From: Clostridia bacterium
Lineage (GTDB): Bacteria; Bacillota; Clostridia; UBA1212; UBA1255
Assembly (NCBI GenBank): GCA_046952735.1
Contig: JBKUJR010000006.1
Coordinates: 12,977 to 76,976 of the forward strand
Reading direction: 5' to 3'
Length of the DNA: 64,000 nt
The notes beneath the pieces are model-generated. The model was not told the DNA's origin, searched no databases, and worked only from the letters and a program-made list of their open reading frames with translations. A program made the position numbers and the translations under genes. Positions 11,827 through 37,736 of this stretch are shown one piece after another. Numbering within the stretch: position 1 is the first letter of the stretch; each line of letters begins with the position of its first letter.

Positions 11827-11911
11827 GCCGGTGTGGCGAAATTGGCAGACGCACGTGACTCAAAATCACGCGGAGCGATCCGTGCCGGTTCGAGTCCGGC
11901 CACCGGCACCA
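11827..11911 (+). tRNA. tRNA-Leu (anticodon CAA)
   Basis: Acceptor stem GCCGGTG/CACCGGC, anticodon loop CT-CAA-AA, long variable arm (type II), T-arm GGTTCGAGTCC, and encoded CCA. Confidence 0.85.
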
Positions 11912-12059
11912 TTGTCGAAAGGGGCTGTAACAAAACAGTCAAAAATGGACCGCGGTCATCTGAAAAGATGATTTGCGGTTCGTTCTTTTTGAAGGGCAGA
12001 CATATGTATTACATTTTTTTGCTTTTTGCGTATATTAGATAGGCCTTGGGCACTTTTGA

Positions 12060-12552
12060 AGGTTTTTCAAAGAAAAAGATCGTATTTTGTTTCACTCCTT
12101 ATGCAGCAATTCGTTCTGCAGCTTTTTTCAAATGGTACTTATGCAAGTTAAAACCACAGGAAATTAGTGCAATTTCAAAAATGACTTCTTCTAATCCCTT
12201 CCGTCGTGCTCTTGTGTACGCTCTGTTCTACTTGATTCCTCCATATACACCCTCTGCCTGAATGCTTCGGTTCATCCGCAGCAAGGCTCCTTGTATGCTA
12301 TTTAGATTGCTTAATACTTCTTTGTGAAAGCCGGTAAGTTCTTTGTTTAGTCGTATTATGCGGTTTCCTGTGCTGCGGCAGCATTGTTCCTTGTGTGGAC
12401 AATCCGTGCAATCCTCGCATTGATAATATTCTTCTGTTCTTCCATAATGATCTCCCTTTATTGCACGGCTTGTTTGTGATTCCGGACACGGGTATAGCGG
12501 TTGCATGCCGTCGATGAAATTGCATCTTTTTCATGAATTGTCGAGCGAACAT
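12060..12552 (-). pseudogene. IS1182-family transposase C-terminal remnant (in-frame stop and frame breaks)
   Basis: Cys-rich motif CEDCTDCPHKEQCC followed by ...RSIQAEGVYGGIK(stop)NRAYTRARRKGLEEV...HNLHK, typical of IS1182 transposase C-termini. Only a fragment is present, immediately 3' of the tRNA-Leu. Confidence 0.55.
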
Positions 12553-12636
12553 ATTGATTTTGTTTCAGAAGCGTGGTATACTTCCATTAGTCAAAATTGC
12601 ATATGTGTACAGATTTAACGAAAGGAATTCCTGACT

Positions 12637-13935
12637 ATGATAGAGCGTCAAAGATATCTCGATAAGCTGATCAATAAAAAAGAGAACGGACTTATTAAGG
12701 TGATTACCGGTATCAGACGGTGCGGTAAATCGTACCTGCTGTTTGAAATCTATCGTCAATATCTGAATAGTATCGGCGTTGATGATGATCACATCATCGC
12801 ACTGGCTCTAGATGACGACGAAAATATCCGATACAGAAATCCCCTTGAATTGGGGCAGTATATTCGCAGTCTCATTACCGATAAGGATAGAATGTACTAT
12901 GTGTTCCTTGATGAGATTCAGAAGGTTGCGACAATTCAGAATCCCTACCTTCCGGGCAGCGATGAAAAGGTTGGTTTTGTAGATGTTCTGCTCGGGCTTA
13001 TGAAGATCAAAAATATTGATCTGTATGTTACCGGCAGTAATTCAAAGATGCTTTCCTCCGATATTTTGACAGAGTTTCGGGGACGCGGAGATGAGATTCG
13101 CGTAAATTCTCTGTCTTACAAAGAATTCTATGACGCTTGCGGCGAGAATAACCGCCATGCATGGCGGGAGTATTTTACCTACGGCGGTATGCCGCTGGTG
13201 CTTCAGCAGAAAACGCCGGAGGATAAAAGCAAATATCTCCATGACTTGTTCGACAAGATTTATCTGGACGACATTATGTCCAGGCATAAGATCGGCTATG
13301 ACAAATATGTGCTTGACGATCTTTTGGATATTGTTGCGTCATCGGTCGGTTCTTTGACAAACCCGATAAAGATTGCAAATACCTTCAGTTCCGTGAAAGG
13401 CACGTCTGTTACCAACGACACCGTCGGTAAGTATCTGGATTTCTTTATCGACGCTTTTATGCTGTATAAAGCAAAGCGTTATGATGTGAAGGGAAGAAAG
13501 TATATCGGCTCGCCGCTGAAATACTATTATTCTGACGTCGGGCTGCGTAATGCAAGGCTGAACTTCCGGCAGCAGGAAGAAAATCATATCATGGAAAATA
13601 TCATATACAATGAGTTGCGTGTTCGCGAATTCGATGTTGACGTGGGTATTGTAGAACTCAGCACCCGCATTGCCGGAGGAAAAACCAAGCGTGTGCAGTA
13701 TGAGGTTGATTTTGTTGCCAATAGAGGCAGCAAGCGGTACTATATCCAATCGACCTTTGCCGTTCCGGATGAAGAGAAACGGGAGCAGGAAATCAGATCT
13801 CTTGTAAAAATACAGGATTCGTTCAAGAAAATCGTTGTCATGCGGGAGGATATTGAACCGTGGCATGATGAGAACGGAATTCTCTATATAGGAATCGAGC
13901 AATTCCTGCTGGATGAAGCAGCGATGGATCTGTAA
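12637..13935 (+). CDS. AAA-family ATPase (AAA_14 + DUF4143 type)
   Basis: Walker A GIRRCGKSYLL, Walker B VFLDEIQ, 432 aa. Confidence 0.8.
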   Translation: MIERQRYLDKLINKKENGLIKVITGIRRCGKSYLLFEIYRQYLNSIGVDDDHIIALALDDDENIRYRNPLELGQYIRSLITDKDRMYYVFLDEIQKVATIQNPYLPGSDEKVGFVDVLLGLMKIKNIDLYVTGSNSKMLSSDILTEFRGRGDEIRVNSLSYKEFYDACGENNRHAWREYFTYGGMPLVLQQKTPEDKSKYLHDLFDKIYLDDIMSRHKIGYDKYVLDDLLDIVASSVGSLTNPIKIANTFSSVKGTSVTNDTVGKYLDFFIDAFMLYKAKRYDVKGRKYIGSPLKYYYSDVGLRNARLNFRQQEENHIMENIIYNELRVREFDVDVGIVELSTRIAGGKTKRVQYEVDFVANRGSKRYYIQSTFAVPDEEKREQEIRSLVKIQDSFKKIVVMREDIEPWHDENGILYIGIEQFLLDEAAMDL

Positions 13936-14102
13936 AAGAAAACGACTAATAGAAAAAGAAGGTATATATGAATTGCGGAATATACAGACATTATAAAGGC
14001 GGTATCTACGAAGTGATAGATACTGCAAAAGCATAGCGAAACATTGGAAGAGCTTGTTGTATATAGAAACATATCAACCGATGTTGGGTCAGACCCGTAT
14101 CT

Positions 14103-14411
14103 ATGTGGAGCGAGACAGTCTTCCATCATGGCAGAAACGTCTTGAGATTTCAATATACTGCTTCTGACATCGATGATATGGACTCGAAACGCTTGTTTCA
14201 GACCATTGAGGATATCGTTGAACTCGGTGAGATGTATGATGCGCTTTCCGACGATAATTGTATTGCCTATTGTCGGAAAGCAACCGACGAAGTCGCTTGT
14301 TTTCTGCATGGAATGGGCTATTATACTGATGGGGAACACGATGAGAGGACTCTGAACCACATAGAAAAGCCCGAATTGGAGAAGCTGAATTTTATAGCTG
14401 AATATGGATGA
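14103..14411 (+). CDS. hypothetical protein (possibly the N-part of a frameshifted UPF0158-like gene)
   Basis: ORF only. The next ORF, in a different frame, carries a GAFRRFKD-like C-terminal motif. Confidence 0.3.
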   Translation: MWSETVFHHGRNVLRFQYTASDIDDMDSKRLFQTIEDIVELGEMYDALSDDNCIAYCRKATDEVACFLHGMGYYTDGEHDERTLNHIEKPELEKLNFIAEYG

Positions 14412-14440
14412 CTATGTTCTGATTACCCAAAGAAAGCTTC

Positions 14441-14659
14441 TTGAGGAATATGAGGTTATGGGAAAGTTATGCTTATGAATTGCCCGGTGGATATCAAGAG
14501 AAGTTATTGGGCGCTCTACAGGGAAAAGGTGTGTTTCGAAGATTCAAAGATACCGTACATAGATTGGGACTTAGTGAATACTGGTATCATTACAGCGATT
14601 ATAAGTATCGCAGGGAAGCTCGTATGTGGTGTGACGCCGTGGGCGTGAATCTTTATTGA
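14441..14659 (+). CDS. hypothetical protein fragment (UPF0158-like C-terminus)
   Basis: The ...KGVFRRFKDTV...W motif resembles UPF0158 family C-termini. Its start is doubtful. Confidence 0.25.
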   Translation: MRNMRLWESYAYELPGGYQEKLLGALQGKGVFRRFKDTVHRLGLSEYWYHYSDYKYRREARMWCDAVGVNLY

Positions 14660-14664
14660 TGAGT

Positions 14665-15290
14665 TTAATGGGACGAAATAGTTATATGTGCTAAGAAAAT
14701 AAATACCGCAGAATTCGATTTTGAATTCTGCGGTATTTCAATCAAAAAACCCCCCGGAATATTTCCTTTAAGAAAATCAGCCTGCGCGATATATGGTGCC
14801 TTCAGGTGGTATCCTTTGTTTTTCAGCATACGAAATTTGAAATCCAGCAATTCAGCCGGAATATACAACTCTTTGGCAACTCCGAAGAAAGACTTTTCGT
14901 TATCATTAAGTAGATCAAGATGTTCGTTATCATCGATCAAAAGCTCGGCAGCAAACAGATTGGCTTCATATTCGGTACGGGACGTCATATCGAACATTTC
15001 AAGCTCCTGAAATCCGCGCATGGCAGCGAGTTCTCCGTGGAGCAAGGCGTGACCGAGTTCGTGGGCACATAAAATTTTTTGCACAATTCTGCGGATCGGA
15101 TATTCAATACGATGTTTTTGATCCTGGATTGATAAAAATAGTAAGCCTTTATCGCTGTGCCTAAATCCTTGTATCGGATACGGACATTCAGATCATCGCA
15201 CAGTTCAAAAGGATTTCTTGTGTCATATTTTCGGATCAGTGCATCGATTTTCTCGGAAATCATATCAGTATATATAGTCAATGTAAACAC
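14665..15290 (-). pseudogene. ImmA/IrrE family metallopeptidase, frameshifted
   Basis: HEXXH motif (AHELGHALLH) in the 3' ORF. The 5' ORF carries the upstream ImmA-like region (...KAYYFYQSRIKNIVLNIRSAE). The frames switch at an A4T6 homopolymer (15071-15080). Confidence 0.65.
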
Positions 15291-15323: not shown

Positions 15324-15785
15324 CTATTTTGATCTTTTTTTTCGCGCCCGTTTTGGTGAGAACTTGGCGCGGGCTTCTTCCTTGGATTCAAGGTAAACTT
15401 CCATTAGAGACTGAAAGAAGAGATTCTTTGCAGAATCATCAAGTTCACCGCCGGCAAAAAGGGCAGAAGCTCGGGATAGAATATCGGTCGCCTCTTTTGC
15501 ACCTTTGTATCCGTATTCATTTTTTGCGTTGGCGATGAAAATATCATGATTGATATCTTTTGTCGTGTCAGTTTCTTCTTCATCTAAGAGATATCCCACG
15601 GATACCTGAAGAGCTTCAGCCAGTTTACGTATATTGCCGCTGCGCGGCAGAACACCAGTTTGTTCATAGGTGTATAAAGAACGCTCGGAAATACCGGTCA
15701 GTTCCGCAACCTCACTTTGAGACAGATTCAGTGCAAGTCTTGCATTTTTCAGTTTTTCACCAAATGTTATAAAAATGTACCTCAC
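15324..15785 (-). CDS. XRE-family HTH transcriptional regulator (ImmR-like)
   Basis: HTH_XRE motif LNLSQSEVAELTGISERSLYTYE. Paired with the ImmA-like gene. Confidence 0.8.
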   Translation of the reverse strand: MRYIFITFGEKLKNARLALNLSQSEVAELTGISERSLYTYEQTGVLPRSGNIRKLAEALQVSVGYLLDEEETDTTKDINHDIFIANAKNEYGYKGAKEATDILSRASALFAGGELDDSAKNLFFQSLMEVYLESKEEARAKFSPKRARKKRSK

Positions 15786-15956
15786 ATTTTCACACGAGAG
15801 TTCCGATTATCTATTAAAAAACTTCCGGTTGTAGTGCATAATAAATACAGAACACAACTTCCGATTAGATCGGACCAAAGAAATTAGCTTCTGTCAAGAG
15901 GAAAAATAGGATTTTCTGTTTTCAGAGAAAGATAATTGAGAAATGGAGGAAACTAG

Positions 15957-16178
15957 ATGGCAAAGGAAACAAATCAGATTTATCTTTCAAGCTGTCCTGT
16001 ATGCGGACGAACATTGTTTAAGGGCACCCCCGACTCATGTATCGAGGGCGGCTGTCAGAAATGTAAGGAATACCTAAAGATAAAATTTCATGATACCGGA
16101 TATCAGGTATGTATTATTAAACCTGACGAAGAGATAACCACAGCAAAATGTGCGGTATCTAAAATAAAAACAAGATAA
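15957..16178 (+). CDS. small zinc-ribbon protein (Mu Com-like)
   Basis: 73 aa with CPVCGR...CQKCKEY, two CxxC pairs. A good RBS (GGAGGAAACTAGATG) is present. Confidence 0.45.
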   Translation: MAKETNQIYLSSCPVCGRTLFKGTPDSCIEGGCQKCKEYLKIKFHDTGYQVCIIKPDEEITTAKCAVSKIKTR

Positions 16179-16298
16179 TATTGTTGCCGAAGAGATAAGT
16201 CAGACTTGTTAAGGGATCAAGAAGGACCTGGCAAACATGATTGCGCAAGAATCGCAGTTTTGTTTGTCGGGTCTTTTTTCTGCAAATTTTATTTTAAA

Positions 16299-16316
16299 CC
16301 GGACAGTAGGTGTCCG
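16299..16316. repeat. Palindromic element CCGGACAGTAGGTGTCCG(G), copy 1, preceded by ATTTTAAA
   Basis: Half-sites CCGGACA/TGTCCGG separated by 5 nt. A near-identical second copy is at 18343-18363. Confidence 0.5.
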
Positions 16317-16596
16317 ATTTAACCTGTAGTATAAGCGTGGAAGAGGGTCATAGAATGCAGGGAACAGCCGAGAAACGAAGTGAAATTATGAAAATCCTGT
16401 GCCGGCGCAGGAGCGAAACTGTTCGAAATTTGTCTTTTGAAATCGATGTTTCCGAACTACCATCCGACGGGATATTGAGATTCTGAGTCTTACAGAGCCG
16501 ATATACACCCAATCCGGAAGATACGGCGGCTGAAGATTGAGTTTCTGCCGGAGCTTGAAAAGAACGGATCAGGCAAGATTAAGAAAGGAGGCAATT

Positions 16597-17208
16597 ATGC
16601 TTGAATTTGAAAAGAAAGTAATGCTTGCAAAAGCAGAATATGAATTTTTAAGAGAACTTTGGCAAAACCATACAGTTACAGCGGTGCAAAATAATCATTA
16701 TTATGATACGGATGATTCTGAACTGTGCAGACAGGGGATTACCTGCCGTATTCGTGAAAAAGACGGACGCTGTACGGCAACGATCAAGGAACATCAAACA
16801 AAGTGGCAGGACTGCAACGTAGAAAATTCACGATCTGTAAGCAATAGATACGATGACGCTCTATTTCGGGATATGGGGATTTACTGTCAGGGCAGTCTTG
16901 AAACGCTTCGCAGTACATATCTCCCTTGCATCGGAGTTTCTCTGATGTTAGATCGAAACAACTATCTCGGCGTAGAGGATTTTGAAATGGAAATTGAATA
17001 TGACCGTGATCATGAGGCTGAGGCTGATGCTGAACGATTGCTTACAGGCATTGTTTTTGATCTTACGGAGCATGGGATTTTACAGAAACCGGCTGCATTC
17101 TGGCTGTGTGCCAGTTACGGGAAGAATAAGGCGGCGCGATTTTTCAGCCGAAAAGAAGAAATCTTGCGTCGAACAGGAGGTGGAAGTCATGAAATCTATA
17201 CTGAATGA
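16597..17208 (+). CDS. CYTH-domain protein (triphosphate tunnel metalloenzyme / class IV adenylate cyclase-like)
   Basis: EFEKKVML (resembling the EIERKFLV start), NHYYDTDDSELCRQGITCRIRE (YfDt...lRiR motif), and acidic DFEMEIEYD. RBS AAGAAAGGAGG. Confidence 0.6.
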   Translation: MLEFEKKVMLAKAEYEFLRELWQNHTVTAVQNNHYYDTDDSELCRQGITCRIREKDGRCTATIKEHQTKWQDCNVENSRSVSNRYDDALFRDMGIYCQGSLETLRSTYLPCIGVSLMLDRNNYLGVEDFEMEIEYDRDHEAEADAERLLTGIVFDLTEHGILQKPAAFWLCASYGKNKAARFFSRKEEILRRTGGGSHEIYTE

Positions 17209-18313
17209 AATCGTTAAGCTTAGAGGCGAACAGATGCCTGTCATTGATTATCATAACAGCAACCGTTATTGTGTAATTGCCGCAGAAAAGGATGGAAGCA
17301 AAACATCATACTGTTTTGGTATTCCGGTTTATAACCGAAAAACGAGAAGAATTATCGATTTGTTATTTCATGAAACCGAAGGCAAGTGGAAAGCAGACGG
17401 CTCAACTGCCGTAATAACTGCCGGAAATGAAATTTATTTAGAAAACCCAGACGGCTTTTCTAAAGTTGCTTTGCCTGAAAGGATTTCAGCAGGAGCAGAA
17501 CGTTGTTTGCGATACGGTATGGCGGAGATTCGACCTACGCTTAACGGCGTCTGTGTTCGGGCGGTCTGTACGGCAGATCAGACGTATGAAATTGACCTAA
17601 TAACCGGTCAACCATTTATGAACGTGCGTGCCAATGACCGATGCTTTTCCCTGATGCAGGAGGAACACAGACCGTTTATGACGGTATCCTGCATCGGCGT
17701 CTTGAACGATTTTGGTCAGATAATCGCACCGTGCATTTTTGAATATCAAAGATATCGCGATAATGCGTACACATTAATTTTTCGACAAAGCAGCCCATAC
17801 GGCAGCACTCTTCTGTTTGAAATCAATTTATATGAGGAAAAACTGTTTCAGGACACTACTGTGGAAAGCCTGCATCCCGATCTGAATAATGCATTCGGAG
17901 GTACGGCGTTTATAGGAAACACTGCTGCATACGGTGAACAATGGCTTTATTCACGTCCTGATTTTGCAAAGCTGCCGGAATTGTACGATAAACAGATACG
18001 AAAGGCAATCTTTCATTTACCGAGATTCGGTGGTAACTGTACTTTCTCCGCCTTTGGGCTTTCTGCTCGTTTTTGCAGCTTCGGTTCCAATTGGGATAAC
18101 AAAATTGAAGCGGCAGAAGAACAGGCAATCGCATATACCGACGGTGCATATCAGAGCTTGGATATTACCAGCCTGATTACCGATAATGCCGGATTTTTGA
18201 AGCATACCGAAGGGCTGATCCTCCGTCCGAAGAAGAAAAACGGTGGGTTTGCCGCAGTATCTACCGGGGACAGTTATTTTGCTCCGCAGATTTTGGAAGT
18301 GAATTTTCGCTGA
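17189..18313 (+). CDS. hypothetical protein (374 aa, beta-rich, no recognisable motif), translationally coupled to the CYTH gene
   Basis: Start ATG 17189 overlaps the CYTH stop (17208) and is preceded by AGGAGGTGGAAG. Long uninterrupted ORF. Confidence 0.6.
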   Translation: MKSILNEIVKLRGEQMPVIDYHNSNRYCVIAAEKDGSKTSYCFGIPVYNRKTRRIIDLLFHETEGKWKADGSTAVITAGNEIYLENPDGFSKVALPERISAGAERCLRYGMAEIRPTLNGVCVRAVCTADQTYEIDLITGQPFMNVRANDRCFSLMQEEHRPFMTVSCIGVLNDFGQIIAPCIFEYQRYRDNAYTLIFRQSSPYGSTLLFEINLYEEKLFQDTTVESLHPDLNNAFGGTAFIGNTAAYGEQWLYSRPDFAKLPELYDKQIRKAIFHLPRFGGNCTFSAFGLSARFCSFGSNWDNKIEAAEEQAIAYTDGAYQSLDITSLITDNAGFLKHTEGLILRPKKKNGGFAAVSTGDSYFAPQILEVNFR

Positions 18314-18342
18314 ATAATAAAAAAATCAAAAAACATTTTTAA

Positions 18343-18363
18343 CCCGGACAGTAGGTGTCCGGG
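18343..18363. repeat. Palindromic element CCCGGACAGTAGGTGTCCGGG, copy 2, preceded by ATTTTTAA
   Basis: Same core as 16299-16316. Located between the 374-aa gene and the RHS gene. Confidence 0.5.
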
Positions 18364-18464
18364 TTGACTTGTAAAATGGTGTTACAGCAGGAAGGAAGAA
18401 GCAGCCGCGTTCCGGAAGACTGTAAAACAAAATATATTTTTTCAAAACGAAAGGAAAATAAACA

Positions 18465-30146: not shown

Positions 30147-30174
30147 TTGACAATAAATAAAAAAGTGGTAAAAT
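30147..30174 (+). promoter_or_regulatory. strong sigma-70-type promoter upstream of the cas operon: -35 TTGACA (30147-30152), extended -10 TGgTAAAAT (30166-30174)
   Basis: Near-consensus hexamers with a 16-nt spacer in an AT-rich (about 27% GC) 600-bp leader. Confidence 0.45.
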
Positions 30175-30281
30175 TTAAATAAATAATTTATAAGGAAAAT
30201 TCATAATATTGAATTTAATCTATAAATCCGGCAAGAATATTATTTTTTATAATAACAAAGAAACGAAAGGAGGAGAGTATT

Positions 30282-30950
30282 TTGGTAAAGCCATATCCCC
30301 TTGAGATGGAGATATCAGGCAACACAGCGATGTGGACACGACCGGATACGGGCGATTGTCCGGTGAGTTATCCAGCCCCCACGTATTCTGCAGTCAAAGC
30401 GATATTCGAGTCTGTTTTGTGGGGGCCGGATATAGAGATTATCCCGACTAAAGTGGAATTGTGCAAACCCGTGCAATATCATACCTATTGTACAAATTAC
30501 GGTGGGCCGCTGCGGAGCACATCTGCAATCAAACAAGGAAATAGTTATCAGCTATACGCCACGGTGTTGATCGATGTCTGCTACAAGCTATACGCGCAAG
30601 TTGTGCCAAATCACAACAAAAAAGACCAGCCACCCACGGCTTTACAATGGGACATGAAAACCACTTCTCCCGGACACGCTTACCAAAGCATTTTTCAGCG
30701 TCGTTTGAAACGCGGCCAGTCTTTTTCTACGATTTCGCTTGGCTGGAGTGAGTTTACCCCCAACTACTTTGGCGAGCTTCGTGATACGACAAAGCTGCTG
30801 GATAATTTGCCTGATATCATCATCCCCTCCATGCTTAGACAAGTATTTTCTAAAGGCTATAACTCTCCGGTTTCCTACACCTATGACAATAATTTAGTGA
30901 TACAGAATGGGACGCTGGAATATCCAAAACGAGGCGTAGATTATGATTAA
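30282..30950 (+). CDS. cas5: Cas5 (type I-C Cas5c/Cas5d-like)
   Basis: 222 aa. YPAPTYSAVKAIFESVLWGPDIEIIPTKVELCKPVQY matches the Cas5d pattern Y.vPTpSAvrGileAI.WkP.i...v.rI.vl.PI, and QLYATVLIDVCYKLYAQV matches RATLALRDVAYVIEAHF. TTG start with AAAGGAGGAG RBS. Confidence 0.7.
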   Translation: MVKPYPLEMEISGNTAMWTRPDTGDCPVSYPAPTYSAVKAIFESVLWGPDIEIIPTKVELCKPVQYHTYCTNYGGPLRSTSAIKQGNSYQLYATVLIDVCYKLYAQVVPNHNKKDQPPTALQWDMKTTSPGHAYQSIFQRRLKRGQSFSTISLGWSEFTPNYFGELRDTTKLLDNLPDIIIPSMLRQVFSKGYNSPVSYTYDNNLVIQNGTLEYPKRGVDYD

Positions 30951-33027
30951 TGAACTGCACGATTTGGCAAAAACACTGGAAAACAAGGGAATCTCACCAA
31001 AAGAGTGGCATAGGGAATATAAAGCAATTCCGAAGGTTACAGAAAAATCTCCTTGTATTAGAATCTGGCTTGACTGCGATGGCGCAATTTGCGGGCTGGA
31101 GGGCCTGTCCGCGGAGCAGGCAAGCCAATTACGAAAATACGGGAACAACCAGAATAGTTTTCCAGCATTCAATATTAGCCCGCTATACCGGCTGACTGAT
31201 TTGGACAGTATTGATGAACTTAAAAGAATCGAAAACGGACAAGGCAAACCTGATATAGAAACAATTAAGTCATGGTGCAAAGAAAACAACTGGATTAAAG
31301 GAGCTCCGAAGCAAATACAAAGAAATTTAGAGGATTGTCCTCAAAGACTTTTGGAAACAATCGGGACACAGGCGCAAATGAACGATACTATTATTTTAGA
31401 ATTAGTTTCATTGTGCAAAAAACTCTGTGAAAATATTGACGGCGGATTTCGAGCCTCCCTTGAAAATTGTATTTTTACAAAATTGCAAAAAGGAGAAGAT
31501 GTGAAACTTGCCCTTGCCTTGCTGTTTCATAAAGGCTCCGCCGAGAAGGAACACAGCAAGGATGCGGGAAACAAATTATCTGTTATTCTGGATGTATGGG
31601 AGTGGAGTCGGTATGAATATCCCGTAGCCAATGAATACACTACGCTTCAACTCAATGAAATGTTGTTGGCAAATAGCGCCAATGTAGAGATACTGGCGGA
31701 TAACACCCAGTTGGACGCTTTTGGCTCTCCTTTTGTGAATCCAAACGAACCGATGCCTAGTGTAAAACTCAGTGGATTTGAAGTTACTCTGCGTTCCATG
31801 TTTAACGGCCAGCCGTGTCAGTACCGTTATGGCCAGATTGACGACGGATCCTATCCGATAACGGCAGAAAACCGTTCGTCGATTAAGAAATCGCTGGAGT
31901 GGATAACGCATCCATCGCGCAGACATGTAACCTGGGAGAAGGTTGATAAAAACGAGGTGGCGTTCGTATATCCCTCCAGATTACCTGAGGTGTTCCCGCA
32001 TTTTGCATCTGTTTTTAAGAATGATCCGAGTAAAAGCCCCAAAAGAACAGAGGCCCGGTTTGAAAATGTCGCTAAAGAGTTTGCTAAATCCTTTCGCGGG
32101 CTCCCTGTCGACCAAAAGCCGGATAACCTGCAGATATTTACAATCCGAAAGTTGGATAAGGCGCGTTCAAAGATCCTCTTCACACATAATACAACGCCAG
32201 AACAACTCATCCAAGCGGCAGACGATTGGTCGCTTGGGTGCCATAATATTCCCGAACTGGAGATGGACGAGGGAAACTCCCCGTTTCCTCTTGAGGTAGG
32301 GTCTATTGTAAATGGTGTTTGGAAACAAAACGGCGAACGGGCGGATGGAAAAACATCCGTCAAATGCATGAAATATTATCAGGGTGTAGAGCTGCTTTTG
32401 AACATCCTGCCACAGGGCGCAGTATATAACTTTTTACATATTACACTTGAACATTCATCCGGTTTAATCAATTATCTAGGCAATTTGCTTCACAGAGGCA
32501 GAAAAGACGGGAGCAGCACCGAGATAAAACGCTTAGAAATCCAAAAAAATGCGGCAGCTCAAATTCTTTCGGTTCTTGGACTGCTACTCTATAAAAGCGA
32601 CATAAGAAAGGAGAAGTATATGGAAGGCCTGGCTTATCTGATCGGTCAACTGTTGCATGTGTCCGATGAGCTCCATACGCTGTACTGCAAGATCAAAAGA
32701 AATGGAGATATCCCGCCGCAGCTGGCAGGCAGCGCTCTGTTTACGACTGCTGGCGATATGCCATTTCAGGCATTGTCACAGCTATCGACAAGACTGAATC
32801 CATACATATCATGGGCAAAACAGTATCAATTTAAAGATATCGAGAAACAAGGCGAGGAAAGCTGGCGTGCAAGATGGCTTTTAGGACTTTTGAGACAGCT
32901 ATCCAACGAAATCCATTTGCAAATGGACAAGTCTATTCGTTTTAACGACTACGACAAAGCCCAGCTTTTTATCGGTTATATGGCATCACTGCAGAAAGAA
33001 GGGCAGCTGCTCAAAACAAAATCGTAG
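30943..33027 (+). CDS. cas8c: Cas8c-like large subunit (assigned by position; 694 aa)
   Basis: Start overlaps the cas5 stop (ATGATTAA). Sits between cas5 and cas7 as Cas8c does in type I-C. No sequence motif that I can verify from memory. Confidence 0.5.
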   Translation: MINELHDLAKTLENKGISPKEWHREYKAIPKVTEKSPCIRIWLDCDGAICGLEGLSAEQASQLRKYGNNQNSFPAFNISPLYRLTDLDSIDELKRIENGQGKPDIETIKSWCKENNWIKGAPKQIQRNLEDCPQRLLETIGTQAQMNDTIILELVSLCKKLCENIDGGFRASLENCIFTKLQKGEDVKLALALLFHKGSAEKEHSKDAGNKLSVILDVWEWSRYEYPVANEYTTLQLNEMLLANSANVEILADNTQLDAFGSPFVNPNEPMPSVKLSGFEVTLRSMFNGQPCQYRYGQIDDGSYPITAENRSSIKKSLEWITHPSRRHVTWEKVDKNEVAFVYPSRLPEVFPHFASVFKNDPSKSPKRTEARFENVAKEFAKSFRGLPVDQKPDNLQIFTIRKLDKARSKILFTHNTTPEQLIQAADDWSLGCHNIPELEMDEGNSPFPLEVGSIVNGVWKQNGERADGKTSVKCMKYYQGVELLLNILPQGAVYNFLHITLEHSSGLINYLGNLLHRGRKDGSSTEIKRLEIQKNAAAQILSVLGLLLYKSDIRKEKYMEGLAYLIGQLLHVSDELHTLYCKIKRNGDIPPQLAGSALFTTAGDMPFQALSQLSTRLNPYISWAKQYQFKDIEKQGEESWRARWLLGLLRQLSNEIHLQMDKSIRFNDYDKAQLFIGYMASLQKEGQLLKTKS

Positions 33028-33033
33028 GAGGTA

Positions 33034-33924
33034 ATGAAAATGAGTAACGAAATCAAGCGAGCAACCGGTCTTTTGGTTGTTGAAGTAGTCAATTCAAATG
33101 CCAACGGAGATCCGGACAGAGAATCTGATCCGCGTCAGAGACCCAATGGAATTGGTGAAATATCACCGGTATCCTTCAAGCGGAAACTTCGTGATTTGCT
33201 GGAGGATCACGATAGCCTTTTCTTCAAAAGCCTGCCTAAAACCTATATCGAAAGCGCGGACAATTACTGGATTTTGGAGTCACGCGGCCGCGATAGGAAA
33301 TCCATTCAAAAGGAAATGGGAAAAGATATCAAGTCTTTCGATCAAAAAGAATTTTTAGAAAGCACATTTGTCAAGAAATACTGGGACGCTAGAGTCTTTG
33401 GCAATACATTTCTCGAAGAAGGCGCGAACAAGGGCTTCATTAAGACTGGCGTTGTCCAATTCGGCGTAGGCACTTCTATCTCTCCTGTTGAGATCATACG
33501 GCATACGAATACGAATAAGGCAGGCGTTCAGGAGGGAAAAAATGCGGGGATGGCTCCACTGGCATTTCGAATTGTTGCACATGGTGTCTACTGCATTCCA
33601 TTTTTTGTAAATCCAAACTTCGCCGGAAATACTGGTTGCACAGCAGAAGACATCGAATTGCTGAAAATTCTAATCCCCAGAGCATATGAACTGAATCGTT
33701 CTGCAATTCGCTCTGATATTCGTATTCGGCATGCTTGGTATATTGAGCACCGCAATGCGCTGGGAAGCTGCCCGGATTATATGCTTTTTGAGGCGTTGAC
33801 TCCTACACGTAAAGAACAGTCTGGCGATCCTTCTATAAGCTGGGCGGATTATGACGACAAAACCGCTTTGCCGGATAATCTGATCGACAAAGTTGCTTCA
33901 GTCGTTGATTTAATGCAGATATGA
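33034..33924 (+). CDS. cas7: Cas7 (Csd2/DevR family, type I-C/I-B-like)
   Basis: TGLLVVEVVNSNANGDPDRESDPRQRP matches sGLL.ieV.naNPNGDPD..N.PR. YWDARVFGNTF...GVVQFGVGTSISPVEI matches DVRlFGaVm...GPvQl..a.SidPi. Confidence 0.75.
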   Translation: MKMSNEIKRATGLLVVEVVNSNANGDPDRESDPRQRPNGIGEISPVSFKRKLRDLLEDHDSLFFKSLPKTYIESADNYWILESRGRDRKSIQKEMGKDIKSFDQKEFLESTFVKKYWDARVFGNTFLEEGANKGFIKTGVVQFGVGTSISPVEIIRHTNTNKAGVQEGKNAGMAPLAFRIVAHGVYCIPFFVNPNFAGNTGCTAEDIELLKILIPRAYELNRSAIRSDIRIRHAWYIEHRNALGSCPDYMLFEALTPTRKEQSGDPSISWADYDDKTALPDNLIDKVASVVDLMQI

Positions 33925-36113
33925 CTTATTTAGCACATAGCTCAAAAGATGGAATTGAAGCCCAAACTTATGCTGATCATGTACGCGGCGTAAGGTCTTT
34001 AGCGAGTCAATATGCATTGGAAACAGGGCATTATTCCAAGTATGATCGGGTAGTTTTGCAACAGGTAACAGAAGAAGCTGCGGAGTATCATGACATTGGT
34101 AAGCTGAATTTGGAAAATCAGAAGGTGCTTTCCGGTGAAGTAACCGCTAAGGTTTTGCCGGTAAATCATGTGGATGCCGGTGCTGCCTATTGGCTGAAAG
34201 ACCAGCGCTCTTCAGTTATCCCCGCTATATTAACACAGGCTCATCATGTTGGATTTCCTGACTTTTCAGCAGAGATGAATAGAGAAGAACTTGCTTTTCG
34301 TGACGCACAGATTGCTGACCTTGTGGATCAGGAGCTTAAAGAACTGGAGGCAATCCACAACAGCCTCATTGGACAGCGATCCCGTACAGCAATGGGGGAA
34401 GGCGTTACGGGAGACTGCAGTGTATTCCTGCGAATGGCTCTGTCATGTATTGCTGACGCTGATCATACTGATACGGCAAGACATTACAGAAAATATCCGC
34501 AAATGGATGAACATATTCCTTTGAAAGCTGGAGAACGACTCGCTAGGCTGGATGAATGCGTGACTGATTTACAACGTAACAATGCTGCTACCGAGAGAAA
34601 TGCGTTGCGAAGCGAGATGTATCAGTCTTGCCGGAATGCTGACATAAAATCTAATATTAGTTCCTGCGACAGTCCCGTGGGATCAGGAAAAACAACCGCA
34701 GTAATGGCGCATTTGCTTGCACAGGCACAAAAGCGAGGCTTACGGCGAATTTTTGTCGTGCTGCCATTTACGAACATTATCCGGCAGTCGGTAAAGACCT
34801 ATCGGACGATGTTAACCCTGCCGGGGGAGAATCCGGAGGAAGTGGTAGCTGAGCTGCATCATCGAGCCGATTTTGAAAACGAGGATGTTCGTTATCTCAC
34901 ATCGCTTTGGCGTGCACCTATTATCGTTACCACTGCTGTTGCCTTTTTTGAAACGCTTGCTTCAAATTCTACTGGTACTCTGCGACGGCTGCATGAACTG
35001 CCTGGAAGCGCAATTTTTGTCGATGAATCACACGCTGCACTGCCAGTTAATCTTTTGCCCGTCGCATGGAAGTGGATGAGGATCCTGTCCGACGAATGGT
35101 CCTGCTACTGGATTCTGGCATCAGGATCCATCAGCCGGTTCTGGACAATTCGGGAGATTGCAGGAAACAATGCTCCTCCCGACATTTCTGAAATTGTAGA
35201 CCCTACTGTGCGCAGTAAACTATCATCTTATGAGCATCACAGAATCACGTACCGATACAATCTTTCACCACAATTTACGGAAGGGCTTGCTGAATGGATC
35301 GCCTCTTTTTCCGGACCGCGGCTTGTCATTTTAAATACGGTTCAGAGTGCAGCTGTTTTAGCTGATCATTTTGCTCAAAAGTATGGAAGGGAAAAGGTGG
35401 AGCACCTGTCGACTTCCCTTACTCCGATTGACAGAGAGTCCACACTAGATTGGGTGAAATTCAGACTGGCTGATCCGAAGGATACGGATTGGACGTTGGT
35501 CGCTACTTCCTGTATGGAAGCAGGCGTTGATTTTTCCTTCAGGATCGGATTTCGTGAACTTTGCTCGTTGTCCTCTTTGCTGCAGGCGGGAGGAAGAATC
35601 AACCGAGAAGGCAGCAATAACAAGGCCGAAATATGGACGTTCTGCATTGCAGAAGATGGCATGTTGAAACGGAATCCCGCTCTAAAACAGGCCGGTATAG
35701 TCCTTAAAGACTATTTGGAAAAGAACATACCCATCTCGCCTCAGCTAACGACAGAATCTATTAGAAAAGAAATAGCACTCTATGGATTGAACCCTATGCA
35801 CCAAAAACTTATGGAATTTGAGGATTTGCAGAACTTCCCACAGGTAGAGTGCAATTTTAAGGTTATCAACTCTGATACCAGACTGGCCGTTGTCGATACC
35901 GATATTGTCAAGCGGTTGCAAGCTGGTAAAGTCAATTGGCGTGAACTACAAAAAGTTTCTATCCAAATTGCGAAATACAAACTTGACGAGTTGAAAATAC
36001 CAAATATCGTGGATGAGATATATCATTGGAATTTGGAATACGACCACTTTCTCGGATATATGGCTGGAATTGTAAAGCTAAAAAAACTCAGTGGGCAGGT
36101 ACTGATTATTTAG
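33921..36113 (+). CDS. cas3: Cas3 (HD nuclease + SF2 helicase)
   Basis: N-terminal HD domain (AHS...YADHV, YHDIGK, DADHTDTA). Helicase motif I SPVGSGKTTA, motif II VDESHA (DExH), motif VI QAGGRINREG. ATG overlaps the cas7 stop (ATGA). Confidence 0.85.
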   Translation: MTYLAHSSKDGIEAQTYADHVRGVRSLASQYALETGHYSKYDRVVLQQVTEEAAEYHDIGKLNLENQKVLSGEVTAKVLPVNHVDAGAAYWLKDQRSSVIPAILTQAHHVGFPDFSAEMNREELAFRDAQIADLVDQELKELEAIHNSLIGQRSRTAMGEGVTGDCSVFLRMALSCIADADHTDTARHYRKYPQMDEHIPLKAGERLARLDECVTDLQRNNAATERNALRSEMYQSCRNADIKSNISSCDSPVGSGKTTAVMAHLLAQAQKRGLRRIFVVLPFTNIIRQSVKTYRTMLTLPGENPEEVVAELHHRADFENEDVRYLTSLWRAPIIVTTAVAFFETLASNSTGTLRRLHELPGSAIFVDESHAALPVNLLPVAWKWMRILSDEWSCYWILASGSISRFWTIREIAGNNAPPDISEIVDPTVRSKLSSYEHHRITYRYNLSPQFTEGLAEWIASFSGPRLVILNTVQSAAVLADHFAQKYGREKVEHLSTSLTPIDRESTLDWVKFRLADPKDTDWTLVATSCMEAGVDFSFRIGFRELCSLSSLLQAGGRINREGSNNKAEIWTFCIAEDGMLKRNPALKQAGIVLKDYLEKNIPISPQLTTESIRKEIALYGLNPMHQKLMEFEDLQNFPQVECNFKVINSDTRLAVVDTDIVKRLQAGKVNWRELQKVSIQIAKYKLDELKIPNIVDEIYHWNLEYDHFLGYMAGIVKLKKLSGQVLII

Positions 36114-36188
36114 AGTACGTTTTGGACAGCATTAAGAAAATTTTGATCACTATTTCTCTAAAATGAATTAGCGCCTTTTTCACAACTT

Positions 36189-36470
36189 TTGCAGAGCAGG
36201 TATTACATTTGTCAAAACACCCCAGTCGTGAGGGGGCTATGCGCCGGACGGTATCTATTTTGTCAACGCTTCCTGGAAGATTTTGCTTTGCTGGTTCCAG
36301 CGATGGTAAATGGAGCGTTTGCATGTGAACTATTTCTTAAATCATTATTAAACGTCTCTCTTAGAGGACATAGACTTTATAGTGATTTATTTTGCAAATT
36401 AGAATTGTCTACTGCACAAGAGATTGAAACAGTTGTCATCGAGAGCTTCAAAAGAAAAAAGCATGTTTAG
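36189..36470 (+). CDS. hypothetical small protein (93 aa) downstream of cas3
   Basis: ORF only, between the cas3 stop and the terminator hairpin. Uncertain. Confidence 0.2.
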   Translation: MQSRYYICQNTPVVRGLCAGRYLFCQRFLEDFALLVPAMVNGAFACELFLKSLLNVSLRGHRLYSDLFCKLELSTAQEIETVVIESFKRKKHV

Positions 36471-36507
36471 CGTTTGGCTTCTTTTTTGTAACAGGAACAC
36501 AGTGTAG

Positions 36508-36553
36508 AAACCTGTCGAAAAAGCTGTAATTGCTTTATCGGCAGGTTTTTGTT
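36508..36553 (+). terminator. rho-independent terminator downstream of the cas operon
   Basis: AAACCTGTCGA ... TCGGCAGGTTT stem (1 mismatch) followed by TTTTTGTTG. Confidence 0.45.
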
Positions 36554-36605
36554 GTAATATGATGCAAACGAACAATATTTATATTTGGTAAGGGAAGATT
36601 CGTTA

Positions 36606-36893
36606 TGAGAAAATGGTGTACAGAGGATTGGGAATTTGAGCTAACTGCTACAGATGGGAAAGCCGGACATTGTAGGCTTGGTTTAGAAAAAGGCGATAAG
36701 GATGATACAAGTATATACATGGTGCGAAGTCATTCGATGCGGCGGCGATTTTACATACAGGGGCAACAAAGAAAAATATGAAATGGACATACCATGTGCT
36801 GACCACTGTATTCGTTTTCATCTTAAAGCATATCCCATAAATCGGGATGAAAATGGAATCCCCCTTCCTAACAGGGAAAGGCCGAAAGATTAG
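36606..36893 (+). pseudogene. small Cys-rich protein gene (TIGR04076-like?), frameshifted
   Basis: MRKWCTEDWEFELTATDGKAGHCRLGLEKGD... continues in the +1 frame as ...CEVIRCGGDFTYRGNKEKYEMDIPCADHCIRFHLKAY. The family assignment is from memory only. Confidence 0.3.
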
Positions 36894-37736
36894 AACGAAA
36901 TGCGGAATGGATTCAATATTTTGAGCATGAATATAACGATTTAAGAGATAAAACAAGGCTTTAAATCAAGATATGAAAATATCATGGGTGTATTATTTGA
37001 ATTTTTGGTAAATGCTTAAATGAGCAATCTCCGTTTATACTGTTGTTGATTTGTTACTGGCACGAACACAATACTTCCTATTATGAGCATACTCTTCACC
37101 TGTGAGAGTTCAAGCCCCCTTACATTATCAAAAGAAGTCGATTGCTGTAAAGCGGCCGACTTCTTTCGGTTTATGTGGTAAAGTTACGGATAGCACTGTA
37201 GATGAAAAGATGGAGGAACGAACTTGCTTGGAAAATCAAATTGCCATACTATTTTGTTTTAAATAGATTGGAATATAAAAATGTTATTCTTCTGATATCG
37301 ATGATTTGAGGAGATGCGATATTTCCTAGATATTTTACAGCTGCTGCGTCAAATGAGAGAACGTCCGCATAACGGATGGACTGATTTTGAATTACAGCAA
37401 AAGTTCAATGATAAAAACATTGAGCAGCCTTTGTTTATAAAATAAATACAGCTTTTGATATGGCAATATATACCCTTGTATCCCTCTAAGTTTTCAGATC
37501 CGTCCACGGTTGGGGTTTTGGATAAATTTTCCTTGTCCTCATCAATATGGCTGTTCATTTGATATTACTCCGAAAGCATTTATGATTTTTTCCGGCATTT
37601 CAAAGTTTGGGATAGTTGCCGGCTCTTTCAAGCTTAGATTCGGCTGCCCGGCAGACTTATTTCCTATTCCATGAATGTCTATGTTGAAGAAAGCATTTTA
37701 AATGTGCTACAATGCCTCAGATAGAGGTGATCGATT

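Follow-up and report, generated by a model that had tools for sequence, protein, structure and literature searches.

Rhs/YD-repeat polymorphic toxin loci with orphan toxin-immunity modules are represented by enterobacterial Rhs and Bacillus WapA. In the type I-C CRISPR-Cas system of Desulfitobacterium sp. PCE1 (L023), the genes are arranged as cas5-cas8c-cas7-cas3-cas4-cas1-cas2 and are accompanied by an array. CreR are Cas-regulating crRNA-like RNAs located upstream of type I and V-A cas genes (bioRxiv 10.1101/2024.10.29.618823). The integrative element ICEBs1 of Bacillus subtilis is located in trnS-leu2, and its int gene is co-transcribed with immR-immA (PMC6957869).

Here we describe a locus that can be compared with each of these systems, within a 64-kb stretch (the window) of a metagenome-assembled genome (MAG) contig from an uncultured gut member of the Clostridia. 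As in ICEBs1, the 3' end of a tRNA-Leu gene is the exact point at which foreign DNA starts, and immR and immA are read in the direction of the tRNA, where ICEBs1 and the closest relative of the pair within a phage collection (L021) have int. Unlike ICEBs1, the window holds no integrase or other recombinase, as gene or fragment, and no att repeats, xis, conjugation, transfer or phage genes, and its immA is a pseudogene. The locus also resembles defence and competition islands, in that cas genes, a PDC-S01-type ATPase, toxin and immunity genes and mobile debris cluster at a strain-variable site, although three configurations from two species are all that define the hotspot in this case. We favour, with a probability of about 55%, an ordinary tRNA-side mosaic island, assembled in at least three steps in a strain-variable hotspot at the tRNA-Leu(CAA) 3' end.

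A foreign island at the 3' end of tRNA-Leu(CAA)

The boundaries of the island are as follows.

11827-11911, + strand: tRNA-Leu(CAA) (ARAGORN; Rfam, 57.7 bits), its CCA end forming the left boundary of the island
37680-37736, + strand: right boundary and start of a host-like LysR unit; homology to L025 begins at 37680

The match between the window and its sister species, Candidatus Egerieisoma faecipullorum, ends precisely at the tRNA-Leu CCA end (11911), and the island is absent from the tRNA-Leu site of that species. Two strains of that species (L009 and L012, 96.9% identity) carry differing low-GC DNA 3' of tRNA-Leu (0.43 and 0.42, respectively, against 0.51 in the core). Since sister-species homology stops at the CCA end and the DNA of two strains differs there, the flank of tRNA-Leu qualifies as a variable hotspot. 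Site-specific integration at tRNA-Leu is plausible, as in all three known configurations (the window, L012/L013 and L009) the sequences part immediately after the CCA end. No direct repeat of the tRNA 3' end, proposed as a check on the original prediction, rose above the level of shuffled sequence, and our search for a conspecific genome without the island found none.

Composition sets the island apart from both of its sides. Every 4-kb segment inside 12-38 kb correlates with the host tetranucleotide signature at only 0.53-0.79, against 0.85-0.94 for each of 35 host segments in a leave-one-out comparison; in a sliding test the fall starts at 12 kb and the host level is regained by 38 kb. The signature of the left flank agrees with that of 50.4-64 kb (r=0.98), of 37.68-50.4 kb (0.96) and of the sister-species core (0.97), and reaches just 0.70-0.76 with the modules of the island, which are also unlike one another (RHS versus cas, r=0.67). 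GC content is 0.425 in the island, 0.485 in the left flank and 0.470 to 0.509 on the right side, and GC3 is lowered in the island as well. Part of the deviation in the RHS region may stem from its repetitive protein and not from its origin. On the right, L025, from another genus, has an independently conserved LysR unit whose left edge lies at 37680. Foreign composition, absence from the sister-species site and this edge together establish 11912 to ~37680 as a genuine horizontally acquired accessory island. An island of ~26 kb after tRNA-Leu(CAA) is what the original prediction had proposed, and every gene that it listed is present, its composition is foreign, and comparison with related genomes revealed no syntenic copy at the sister-species site.

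Relics, a candidate defence ATPase and an immR-immA pair next to the tRNA

Five features lie nearest to the tRNA.

12228-12506, - strand: IS1182-family transposase relic, C-terminal part only (NCBIfam NF033551 positions 367-453 of 488, E 3.4e-12)
12637-13935, + strand: intact AAA_14/DUF4143 ATPase (Pfam; PADLOC PDLC04787, PDC-S01, E 3e-106)
~13967-14140, + strand: DUF1653 fragment with a premature stop (Pfam DUF1653 positions 1-35 of 62, E 5e-13, conceptual translation)
14665-15290, - strand: ImmA-like M78 metallopeptidase, a pseudogene with a single frameshift near 15100-15150
15324-15785, - strand: intact ImmR-like XRE-family repressor (HTH_3, E 7e-11)

The first three now occupy the gap between immA and the tRNA. 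The NF033551 score of the IS1182 relic is far under the cut-off; on contig L010, 99.8% identical to the window, DDE_Tnp_1_6 is called, as is a 22-aa gene at the DUF1653 fragment. The ATPase is a candidate defence gene of the PDC-S01 type, and a paralogue with 30% identity adjoins tRNA-Leu in the sister species too.

Both members of the predicted ImmR/ImmA-like pair were recognised, ImmA only as a frameshifted pseudogene: its C-terminal ORF has a Pfam match, the ImmA of L021 aligns across two frames, and the conceptually repaired protein covers Peptidase_M78 positions 1-120 of 123 (E 1.5e-17). ImmR also matches PADLOC HTH models of the capH/RmrA type. In L021, the immR gene (63% identical) is followed by immA, two small genes and a tyrosine integrase. 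The direction of the pair in the window, towards tRNA-Leu, reproduces the immR-immA-int operon layout of ICEBs1 and L021, which favours the relic of an integrative element. A demonstrable link joins just two parts of the island, the immR module and the RHS unit: in L019, a remnant of immR (aa 4-56, 70% identity) abuts the same series of zinc-ribbon, HTH, CYTH, 374-aa and rhs genes.

A polymorphic-toxin unit with orphan modules and an intron relic

The central part of the island is taken up by an RHS unit and an intron that entered it.

15622-28423, + strand: whole RHS unit (accessory genes, main rhs and orphan cassettes)
15957-16178, + strand: four-cysteine zinc-ribbon ORF, first gene of the unit, 57% identical to the L019 gene at the same position
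16299-16316, + strand: 18-nt palindrome CCGGACAGTAGGTGTCCG, copy 1, upstream of the HTH regulator
16355-16533, + strand: HTH_11/HTH_DeoR regulator remnant, frameshifted (repaired translation, HTH_11 E 9e-8)
16598-17208, + strand: CYTH-domain protein (Pfam CYTH, E 6e-15), at the same position in L019
17189-18313, + strand: 374-aa RHS-associated protein of an unnamed family, adjoining rhs in L019 and L020
18344-18361, + strand: palindrome CCGGACAGTAGGTGTCCG, copy 2, upstream of rhs
18465-24683, + strand: main rhs, 2072 aa (Pfam RHS_repeat, E 2e-30; C-terminal Ntox35 toxin, E 2e-10)
24689-25387, + strand: candidate cognate immunity gene (GC 30.9%, GC3 0.29)
25480-27419, + strand: orphan rhs 3' module with a second Ntox35, interrupted (Pfam RHS_repeat, Ntox35)
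27455-28057, + strand: candidate immunity gene of the orphan module, by position and composition (GC 27.5%)
28066-28423, + strand: second orphan rhs fragment, truncated by the intron, 79-80% identical to 23424-23781
28412-29668, + strand: group II intron relic, a 5' RNA domain and a truncated reverse transcriptase/maturase

L019 is collinear with the window from 15622 to 23863 at 70-75% nucleotide identity, save for one 3.4-kb deletion. This collinearity places the CYTH operon and the zinc-ribbon gene, first listed as separate items, within the RHS unit. The deletion junction (16530/16531) is abutted by the end of the regulator remnant, and nothing in the window corresponds to L019 5910-9348, which carries NTP_transf_5, dNK-like kinase and AMP-binding/PP-binding genes. 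The palindrome CCGGACAGTAGGTGTCCG is present twice without mismatch, where chance alone would give 0.01, and is found at both equivalent positions in L019. The zinc-ribbon ORF has no Pfam or NCBIfam match and hence no family assignment, so that the Com-like identity given to it in the original prediction is putative. The 374-aa protein has >1200 homologues of ~375 aa and no Pfam domain; it shows a weak DNRLRE_dom match, and its AlphaFold model (pLDDT 91.7) is all-beta, with a C-terminal half like the carbohydrate-binding module 8wab.

Like enterobacterial Rhs and Bacillus WapA, the window encodes a large protein that has RHS repeats and ends in a variable toxin, here Ntox35, followed immediately by a small low-GC gene and, further downstream, by promoter-less rhs 3' copies with toxin and immunity ends of their own. 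The gene at 24689-25387 is a candidate immunity gene because of its position immediately 3' of the toxin and its GC3 of 0.29. Neither candidate immunity gene has a Pfam or NCBIfam match, and both fall below the ~33% GC first quoted for them. The orphan copies were defined by internal repeat families D1-D6. The module at 25480-27419 is 73-90% identical to 22758-24557, with offsets that shift among 2722, 2738, 2735 and 2736 nt, and has TAG in place of CAG at 25504. What differs from the enterobacterial and WapA loci is that this version, from Gram-positive gut Clostridia, comes with a conserved upstream gene set, comprising in L019 a zinc ribbon, HTH_DeoR, NTP_transf_5, kinase, AMP-binding, CYTH and the 375-aa beta-sandwich protein. 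We know of no described function for this set.

The intron is a separate insertion within the last rhs fragment. Its domain-1 RNA (28412-28473) matches Rfam RF01998 at 46.7 bits, and its reverse transcriptase/maturase (28949-29668) retains RVT_1 positions 111-193 of 205 (Pfam) and GIIM; an Rfam search at E up to 1 found no domain V/VI.

A type I-C effector cassette shared by unrelated contexts

Right of the intron relic lie four intact cas genes behind a conserved leader.

29893-30281, + strand: conserved cas leader, aligning with the leaders of L017 and L018
30282-30950, + strand: cas5c
30943-33027, + strand: cas8c
33034-33924, + strand: cas7
33921-36113, + strand: cas3

PADLOC identified Cas5c, Cas8c (E 3e-226), Cas7 and Cas3c, in agreement with Pfam. 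The same four effector genes stand in the same order in L023, with Cas8c 56% identical; unlike L023, neither the window nor L016, L017 or L018 has cas4, cas1, cas2 or an array, with no array anywhere in the 64 kb and no adaptation gene found by tblastn. With dN/dS at 0.07-0.29, the cas genes, judged from their sequences, are nonetheless under purifying selection.

The 6.2-kb cassette is ~84% identical in nucleotide sequence to L016, L017 and L018, three contexts with unrelated flanks. The edges of this homology are sharp (left ~29893/30037, right ~36127-36225): similarity among the four fades within ~110 nt of the cas3 stop, and blastn ends at 36127. Cassette GC is 0.435 in the window and 0.45 in L018, though the Rnf flank of L018 is at 0.564. 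A tRNA-Leu(CAA) gene, just 80% identical to that of the window, is found 4.9 kb upstream of the related cassette in L018.

Proposed assembly of the island

In the reading that we favour, an ICE- or prophage-type element would first have entered at the tRNA 3' end. Its end would have been ordered attL, int, (small genes), immA and immR, with the RHS toxin unit next to immR, and int, attR and all transfer or phage genes would later have been lost. This step is proposed from gene order and analogy, as the island retains neither an integrase nor an att repeat nor a transfer gene. The second step can be read from the sequence: the toxin locus evolved in the manner of such loci, with older toxin/immunity ends displaced by new ones and kept as orphan modules; the 3.4-kb deletion took three accessory genes, the regulator was frameshifted, and the group II intron entered the last orphan rhs fragment and was then truncated. 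Comparison of the four contexts shows a third step, in which the 6.2-kb type I-C effector cassette and its leader arrived separately. We infer that the steps took place in this order. The island is immobile at present and its regulatory and mobility parts are decaying, as frameshifts, fragments, the deletion and lost RNA structure indicate. Parts that still look functional are the RHS toxin and its candidate immunity gene, which would serve interbacterial competition, the AAA_14 ATPase, a candidate for defence, and the four cas genes.

The original prediction, a single tRNA-Leu-targeting element of ~26 kb that brought ATPase, immR/immA, RHS and cas genes together and decayed in place, fits the single block of foreign DNA, whose composition changes sharply at the tRNA and at ~37.7 kb, the immR-immA orientation suited to an int-proximal end at the tRNA, the linkage of immR module and RHS unit in two genomes, and the position of the L018 cassette, likewise downstream of a tRNA-Leu(CAA) gene. 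What holds of it is a foreign island at the tRNA 3' end and the immR-immA layout; the content, however, is mosaic, and neither integrase nor att repeat is present. Three contexts with neither RHS unit nor immR hold the cas cassette between these same edges, the RHS unit of L019 lacks the cas cassette (within the 17.8 kb fetched), the signatures of the two modules differ, and the intron is an insertion in an rhs fragment. This already weakened reading is quite unlikely. A recombination hotspot filled piecemeal, by homologous or illegitimate events and with no tRNA integration, is a somewhat unlikely alternative, in which immR/immA would be a damage-responsive switch of the CapH/CapP kind for the divergent RHS operon. 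All three fillings at this one point lack integrase and att repeat, AAA_14 paralogues adjoin the tRNA in both species, and the pair could indeed be a regulatory switch of the RHS operon: ImmR matches the PADLOC capH and RmrA models, and immR is divergent from the RHS unit, an adjacency kept in L019. However, a break at the CCA end in all configurations is what integrase crossover in a tRNA 3' end produces and general recombination does not need. Moreover, immA is frameshifted here, and in L019 immR is truncated and immA absent with rhs intact, so that the pair is dispensable for the toxin locus; its nearest intact relative, in L021, sits with an integrase.

That contigs of two organisms were misjoined through conserved tRNA sequence is highly improbable. 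The source is a MAG contig, the tRNA 3' half is identical between species, and the passage from the unique left flank through the tRNA into the island is covered by no independent contig (L001 ends at 11869 and L010 begins at 11854). Yet both sides of the island share the host signature (r=0.96-0.98), so that an artefact would need two precise misjoins; both flanks are found at 99.97-100% identity in one sample (SRR29943862), and pieces of the island recur in other samples at 99.8-100% identity.

Sequences flanking the cas cassette

Three further features lie beside the cas genes.

30040-30120, - strand: degenerate CreR-like element (lone pseudo-repeat and pseudo-spacer, terminator lost)
36199-36274, + strand: two copies of a 25-nt motif, near-exact at 36250-36274 and degenerate at 36199-36223
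36605-36893, + strand: small gene over two frames (overlapping ORFs 36605-36781 and 36702-36893)

The small gene has no Pfam or NCBIfam match, its joined sequence included. The 25-nt motif flanks the cas cassette on both sides in L017 and L018. GC content is 26.8% across 29669-30281, in line with the ~27% predicted for the cas leader, which contains a promoter-like TTGACA-16-TAAAAT at 30147-30174 (scan score 11 of 12). The window copy of the CreR-like element has a 3-nt insertion and a 5-nt deletion, with neither terminator nor seed match, and its fold z-score is +0.53, compared with -8.6 and -4.1 for the copies in L018 and L017. The pseudo-repeats of L018 and L017 are of the GTCGTCTGTTTTCAGACGTGGATTGTAAT type and resemble the I-C repeat of L023, and the seeds of the accompanying spacers match a site next to the promoter that is flanked by TTC, seed and site covarying. 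With a single pseudo-repeat, a 10-12-nt seed to a TTC-flanked cas-promoter site and a rho-independent terminator, the L017 and L018 elements match the description of CreR (bioRxiv 10.1101/2024.10.29.618823) and are putative regulators.

Extent and composition of the island

The DNA downstream of a tRNA-Leu(CAA) gene, from position 11912 to about 37680, is foreign; it begins at the tRNA, and the parts that would define an integrative element are gone from it. It is an accessory island on a tRNA flank, with genes for defence and competition, and belongs to a kind that is already familiar. Host genes to the left of the tRNA, on the minus strand, code for a glycosyltransferase, an iron alcohol dehydrogenase and a two-component system, and the other landmarks that frame the island are as follows.

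11827-11911, plus strand: tRNA-Leu(CAA), detected with ARAGORN and Rfam
from 37737: LysR-led redox gene cluster, to the right of the island
from about 50.4 kb, minus strand: pyrimidine biosynthesis operon

Once corrected for base composition, the left flank's tetranucleotide signature correlates closely with that of 50.4-64 kb (r=0.98), of 37.68-50.4 kb (0.96) and of core genes from a sister species (0.97), whereas against the island modules r reaches only 0.70-0.76. In 4-kb sliding windows all host values (leave-one-out) fall at 0.85-0.94 and all values inside 12-38 kb at 0.53-0.79; the drop starts at 12 kb, and the signature is fully back at host level by 38 kb. GC content is 0.425 in the island, as opposed to 0.485 in the left flank and 0.470 to 0.509 beyond the right boundary, while GC3 declines from 0.56-0.64 outside to values down to 0.24 within.

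Synteny is no guide to the right boundary, as the sister species has PolC or PdxRST past its tRNA, and the LysR-MerR cluster of another genus (L025, a 78% LysR relative) comes from a different context. The boundary was therefore set by composition. Homology to the LysR-MerR unit of L025, 73% identical, sets in at 37680, and because this onset agrees with composition we accept the coordinates of the original prediction (11827-37700), which prove correct to within tens of bases by tetranucleotide signature, GC content and the L025 homology edge. Across the whole LysR-MerR-flavodoxin redox cluster (37680-40690 versus L025 4213-8305, GCA_037193305.1) DNA identity is 67-73%; the L025 cluster has another upstream neighbour, and the copy studied here is nevertheless host-like in signature.

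No independent contig crossing the tRNA/island junction was found. Conspecific contigs spanning the junctions were sought by exact-protein look-up, which returned only short contigs, broken at 36929 or at the tRNA, and no conspecific genome covering the site. In other samples, parts of the island are present at 99.8-100% identity, on contigs that all break at the tRNA or within the island. Since a single signature is common to both flanks, we consider an assembly chimera at the conserved tRNA unlikely.

The 3' flank of tRNA-Leu in relatives

Four contigs from a single sister species (L008, which bears the title Ca. Egerieisoma faecipullorum, L009, L012 and L013; mutually 96.9-99.1% identical) share 76-77% identity with the left flank across 9 kb, and in every case this homology ends exactly at the tRNA CCA end (11911). 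Within that species L009 and L012, with cores 96.9% identical, also diverge from each other exactly at the CCA end. Past the tRNA, L009 carries a sigma-like gene, two small genes and PolC (L009 1-2946), and L012 and L013 carry two ORFs without a name, an AAA_14 paralogue, a group II reverse-transcriptase fragment, Fic and PdxR/S/T. The fillings of L009 and L012 have a GC content of 0.42-0.43, compared with 0.51 in the core, and the content of our island is missing at the tRNA-Leu site in two sister-species strains. Because the fillings differ after the CCA end within the sister species, sequence comparison indicates that the 3' flank of tRNA-Leu is a variable hotspot in this lineage.

In L012 (1-9764) the AAA_14 paralogue is inverted, and the reverse-transcriptase fragment is interrupted by an IS3 transposase. 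The sigma-like gene of L009 was ruled out as an orthologue of the gene at 46388-48016, with which it shares just 30% identity.

A single integrative element or several modules

The original prediction regarded the whole region as one decayed, tRNA-Leu-targeted integrative element. Consistent with tRNA-integrated elements, the island starts at the tRNA 3' end, where homology to three sister-species contigs ends (11911), and its composition in sliding windows is unlike the host's across 12-38 kb (r 0.53-0.79 versus 0.85-0.94; GC 0.425 versus 0.47-0.51). The break at the CCA end, seen in three configurations, counts for integration because a crossover in the tRNA 3' end leaves such a breakpoint. 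The proposed check for a downstream direct repeat of the tRNA-Leu 3' end (attR) gave nothing above chance in the window: there was no 25-mer at ≤3 mismatches and no common k-mer of ≥12 nt, and the best ungapped matches were at the level of shuffled sequence. Shared-k-mer searches likewise detected no att repeat in L009, L012, L013 or in L018, a contig with a related cas cassette. Domain scans of the ORFs found no integrase, other recombinase or fragment thereof in the window, and the best tblastn match to either of two integrases (E 0.014) falls inside cas3. Transfer, replication and virion genes are absent among the annotated ORFs of the window, the island DNA has no similarity to plasmid and phage collections, and IMG/VR scans with ImmR, Cas7 and a 374-aa protein family described below returned nothing.

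The part of the island nearest the tRNA contains the following genes and remnants.

12228-12506, minus strand: IS1182 transposase fragment, covering positions 367-453 of the 488 in the transposase model
12637-13935: intact AAA_14/DUF4143 ATPase, matching the PADLOC candidate PDC-S01
within 11912-14665, between immA and the tRNA: DUF1653 fragment
14665-15290, minus strand: M78 peptidase (ImmA-like; Peptidase_M78), frameshifted
15324-15785, minus strand: XRE-type repressor (ImmR-like; HTH_3)

An HTH repressor followed by an M78 (HEXXH) metallopeptidase, both on the minus strand and transcribed toward the tRNA, has the make-up of an ImmR/ImmA module. ICEBs1 is located in trnS-leu2 and has its int gene co-transcribed with immR-immA (PMC6957869). 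In the nearest relative of our ImmR in the phage collection (L021, 63% identical), immR is followed by an intact immA, then by two small ORFs and finally by a 384-aa tyrosine integrase. By tblastn, no such integrase follows immA in the window; unlike in ICEBs1 and L021, the int-side interval (11912-14665) holds instead the IS1182 relic, whose match is confined to part of the model with no full-length transposase present, together with the AAA_14 gene and the DUF1653 fragment.

By analogy with these elements, the part of the island running from immR through the RHS locus may plausibly be integrative in origin. The interpretation as one element thus holds in part: the island is foreign and starts at the tRNA, without an integrase or att repeat, and the immR-RHS part would fit, unlike the cas cassette and the intron.

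An immR module joined to an RHS unit

Profile searches bore out essentially every item in the originally predicted gene list. What did not stand was the listing of a "CYTH operon" and a "Com-like" gene as separate items, as comparison with a relative carrying the full RHS unit (L019) places both within that unit, of which the window retains the following.

15957-16178: zinc-ribbon ORF
16598-17208: CYTH gene
17189-18313: 374-aa gene
18465-24683: 2072-aa RHS protein with an Ntox35 end
24689-25387 and 27455-28057: candidate immunity ORFs, low in GC, positioned after toxin ends and without a family match

The toxin locus is recognised by RHS_repeat (E 2e-30) and Ntox35 (E 2e-10). In L019 the full unit comprises a zinc ribbon, HTH_DeoR, NTP_transf_5, a dNK-like kinase, an AMP-binding/PP-binding enzyme, CYTH, the 374-aa protein and rhs, and our region is collinear with it from 15622 to 23863 at 70-75% identity. 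Collinearity is broken only at 16530/16531, where a clean deletion of 3.4 kb has taken out three genes and left a frameshift in the regulator. The missing DNA corresponds to L019 5910-9348, encoding NTP_transf_5, a dNK/thymidylate-kinase-like protein and the AMP-binding/PP-binding enzyme, a nucleotide-related set that in L019 is located upstream of rhs, with the HTH_DeoR regulator on one side and CYTH on the other.

What remains of immR in L019 (residues 4-56, 70% identical) directly adjoins the zinc-ribbon gene. Of all the evidence, this linkage of immR module and RHS unit in two genomes speaks most strongly for the arrival of part of the island as one piece. Inspection of the raw L019 sequence by eye also revealed an apparent tyrosine-recombinase-like pseudogene fragment (~4700-5000, plus strand) beside the truncated immR and upstream of the RHS unit; nearby called gene fragments match AAA_25, NikA-like and DUF4368.

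An 18-nt palindrome, CCGGACAGTAGGTGTCCG, lies upstream of the regulator-led operon and of rhs in both genomes (16299-16316 and 18344-18361 in the window; 5677-5693 and 11158-11174 in L019), and is probably a shared operator. The 3' end of the locus has accumulated orphan modules, with six internal rhs repeat families (D1-D6) at 73-90% identity and two displaced rhs ends following rhs. The first retains its own Ntox35 and candidate immunity ORF, but is damaged by a stop codon and by indels, whereas a group II intron truncates the second.

Relatives of the 374-aa protein form a family with >1200 members of ~375 aa, which adjoin rhs genes and have neither names nor a Pfam domain. Its predicted structure (pLDDT 91.7) is all-beta, with two beta-sandwich domains, and in this model the C-terminal half resembles a carbohydrate-binding (chondroitin-sulfate-binding) module. 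It was ruled out as a paralogue of the RHS N-terminus (best BLASTP E-value 0.13). To our knowledge, RHS export and regulation in gut Clostridia are poorly understood, and the ~375-aa beta-sandwich family and the conserved upstream gene set are found to accompany RHS toxins in these bacteria.

Separate histories of the intron and the cas cassette

The right part of the island is made up of modules of other kinds.

28412-29668: group II intron relic, with domain 1 (RF01998) and a reverse transcriptase that lacks its N-terminal part
30282-36113, plus strand: cas5c, cas8c, cas7 and cas3, identified with PADLOC and Pfam
36605-36893, plus strand: small gene split across two frames

The intron and the cas cassette each have a history separate from the rest. 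At 28412-29668 only domain 1 and the truncated reverse transcriptase were found, not a complete group II intron (domains I-VI with an intact reverse transcriptase/maturase). The identity guessed for the small frameshifted gene, TIGR04076, was dropped for want of a family match.

Its gene content (cas5c, cas8c, cas7 and cas3, with cas6 absent, by PADLOC and Pfam) makes the cassette a type I-C effector. Similar cassettes occur elsewhere, with 84.6% identity to L018 (window 30037-36127) and 83.8% to L016 and L017 (30266-36126), and an additional leader match starting at 29893. In alignment, similarity continues weakly for ~100 nt past the blastn end, to ~36225, homology among the four loci fades within ~110 nt of the cas3 stop, and the flanks of the cassettes are unrelated. 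The hosts of our cassette and of L018 are distant, since their tRNA-Leu genes are just 80% identical; the cassette has a GC content of 0.435 here and 0.45 in L018, while the Rnf flank of L018 stands at 0.564. L018 itself has a tRNA-Leu(CAA) gene (4334-4420) 4.9 kb upstream of its cassette; the interval is taken up by one MarR gene and two genes for ABC transporters, and a resolvase fragment lies downstream.

A more distant, complete I-C locus from Desulfitobacterium sp. PCE1 (L023) has the order cas5-8-7-3-4-1-2 plus a 21-repeat array. Searched with its proteins (tblastn), the window, L016, L017 and L018 yielded no cas4, cas1 or cas2. No CRISPR array (I-C-type repeats having the form GTCG...GTGGATTGAAAT) was found in the 64-kb window or in the DNA fetched for ~4-10 kb either side of the L016, L017 and L018 cassettes. 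For all four cas genes dN/dS between the truncated loci is 0.07-0.29, and this purifying selection argues that the truncated cas5c-cas8c-cas7-cas3 form is being kept.

It is conceivable, though in our judgement rather unlikely, that the cassette is a self-contained horizontally moving unit, selected in several gut Clostridia and functional without an array of its own. Such a cassette could be guided by arrays elsewhere in the genome, or solely by a built-in crRNA-like RNA, and would then represent a type I interference module uncoupled from adaptation rather than a dying remnant. Features that prompt this reading are the absence of cas4, cas1, cas2 and an array, the leader of its own with a CreR-like guide, and a 25-nt direct repeat on both sides of the cassette in other genomes. 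The array-less cassette is the lead most worth following from this region.

A CreR-like element and a repeated motif beside the cas genes

On the strand opposite the cas genes, the leader contains a CreR-like element consisting of a lone I-C-like pseudo-repeat, then a spacer, then a terminator. Its copies, and those of a 25-nt motif that accompanies the cassettes, are located as follows.

CreR-like element, upstream of cas5, minus strand: window 30040-30120; L018 ~9070-9180; L017 ~2900-3010
25-nt motif GGTATCTATTTTGTCAACGCTTCCC: window 36199-36223 and 36250-36274; L018 8928 and ~15259; L017 2658, 2757 and 9090

The pseudo-repeats of L017 and L018 show a clear likeness to the L023 repeat, and their spacer seeds match a TTC-flanked site directly after the -10 element of the cas promoter, at 10/10 positions in L017 and 10/12 in L018. 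Between the two loci spacer and target differ in matching fashion (covariation), and the L017 and L018 elements fit the published description of CreR (bioRxiv 10.1101/2024.10.29.618823). In the window no seed match to a PAM-flanked site in the cas promoter was found; this copy has a stem insertion and a G-to-A change in the handle, and has lost the seed, part of the stem and the terminator.

The motif GGTATCTATTTTGTCAACGCTTCCC is always on the cas strand, each copy followed by a different hairpin. It flanks the cassette on both sides in L017 and L018 and on the right only in the window; the complete I-C locus L023 does not have it. A cas4 remnant was rejected as its identity, there being no similarity.

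Significance and gene orientation

The stakes of the island itself are modest: it adds one more tRNA-side defence and competition hotspot, in a gut lineage that is related to Ca. Egerieisoma and little known, and shows that what looks like a single element can have been put together from modules that each have their own history. More weight may attach to two by-products: the adaptation-less, array-less type I-C cassette recurring in unrelated genomes under purifying selection, and the ~375-aa beta-sandwich protein family with its upstream gene set beside RHS toxins.

Cumulative GC skew rises steadily from ~12 kb to ~50 kb (12000-50000) and falls on both sides; the rise tracks a block of plus-strand genes that reaches 12 kb past the island into host-like DNA.
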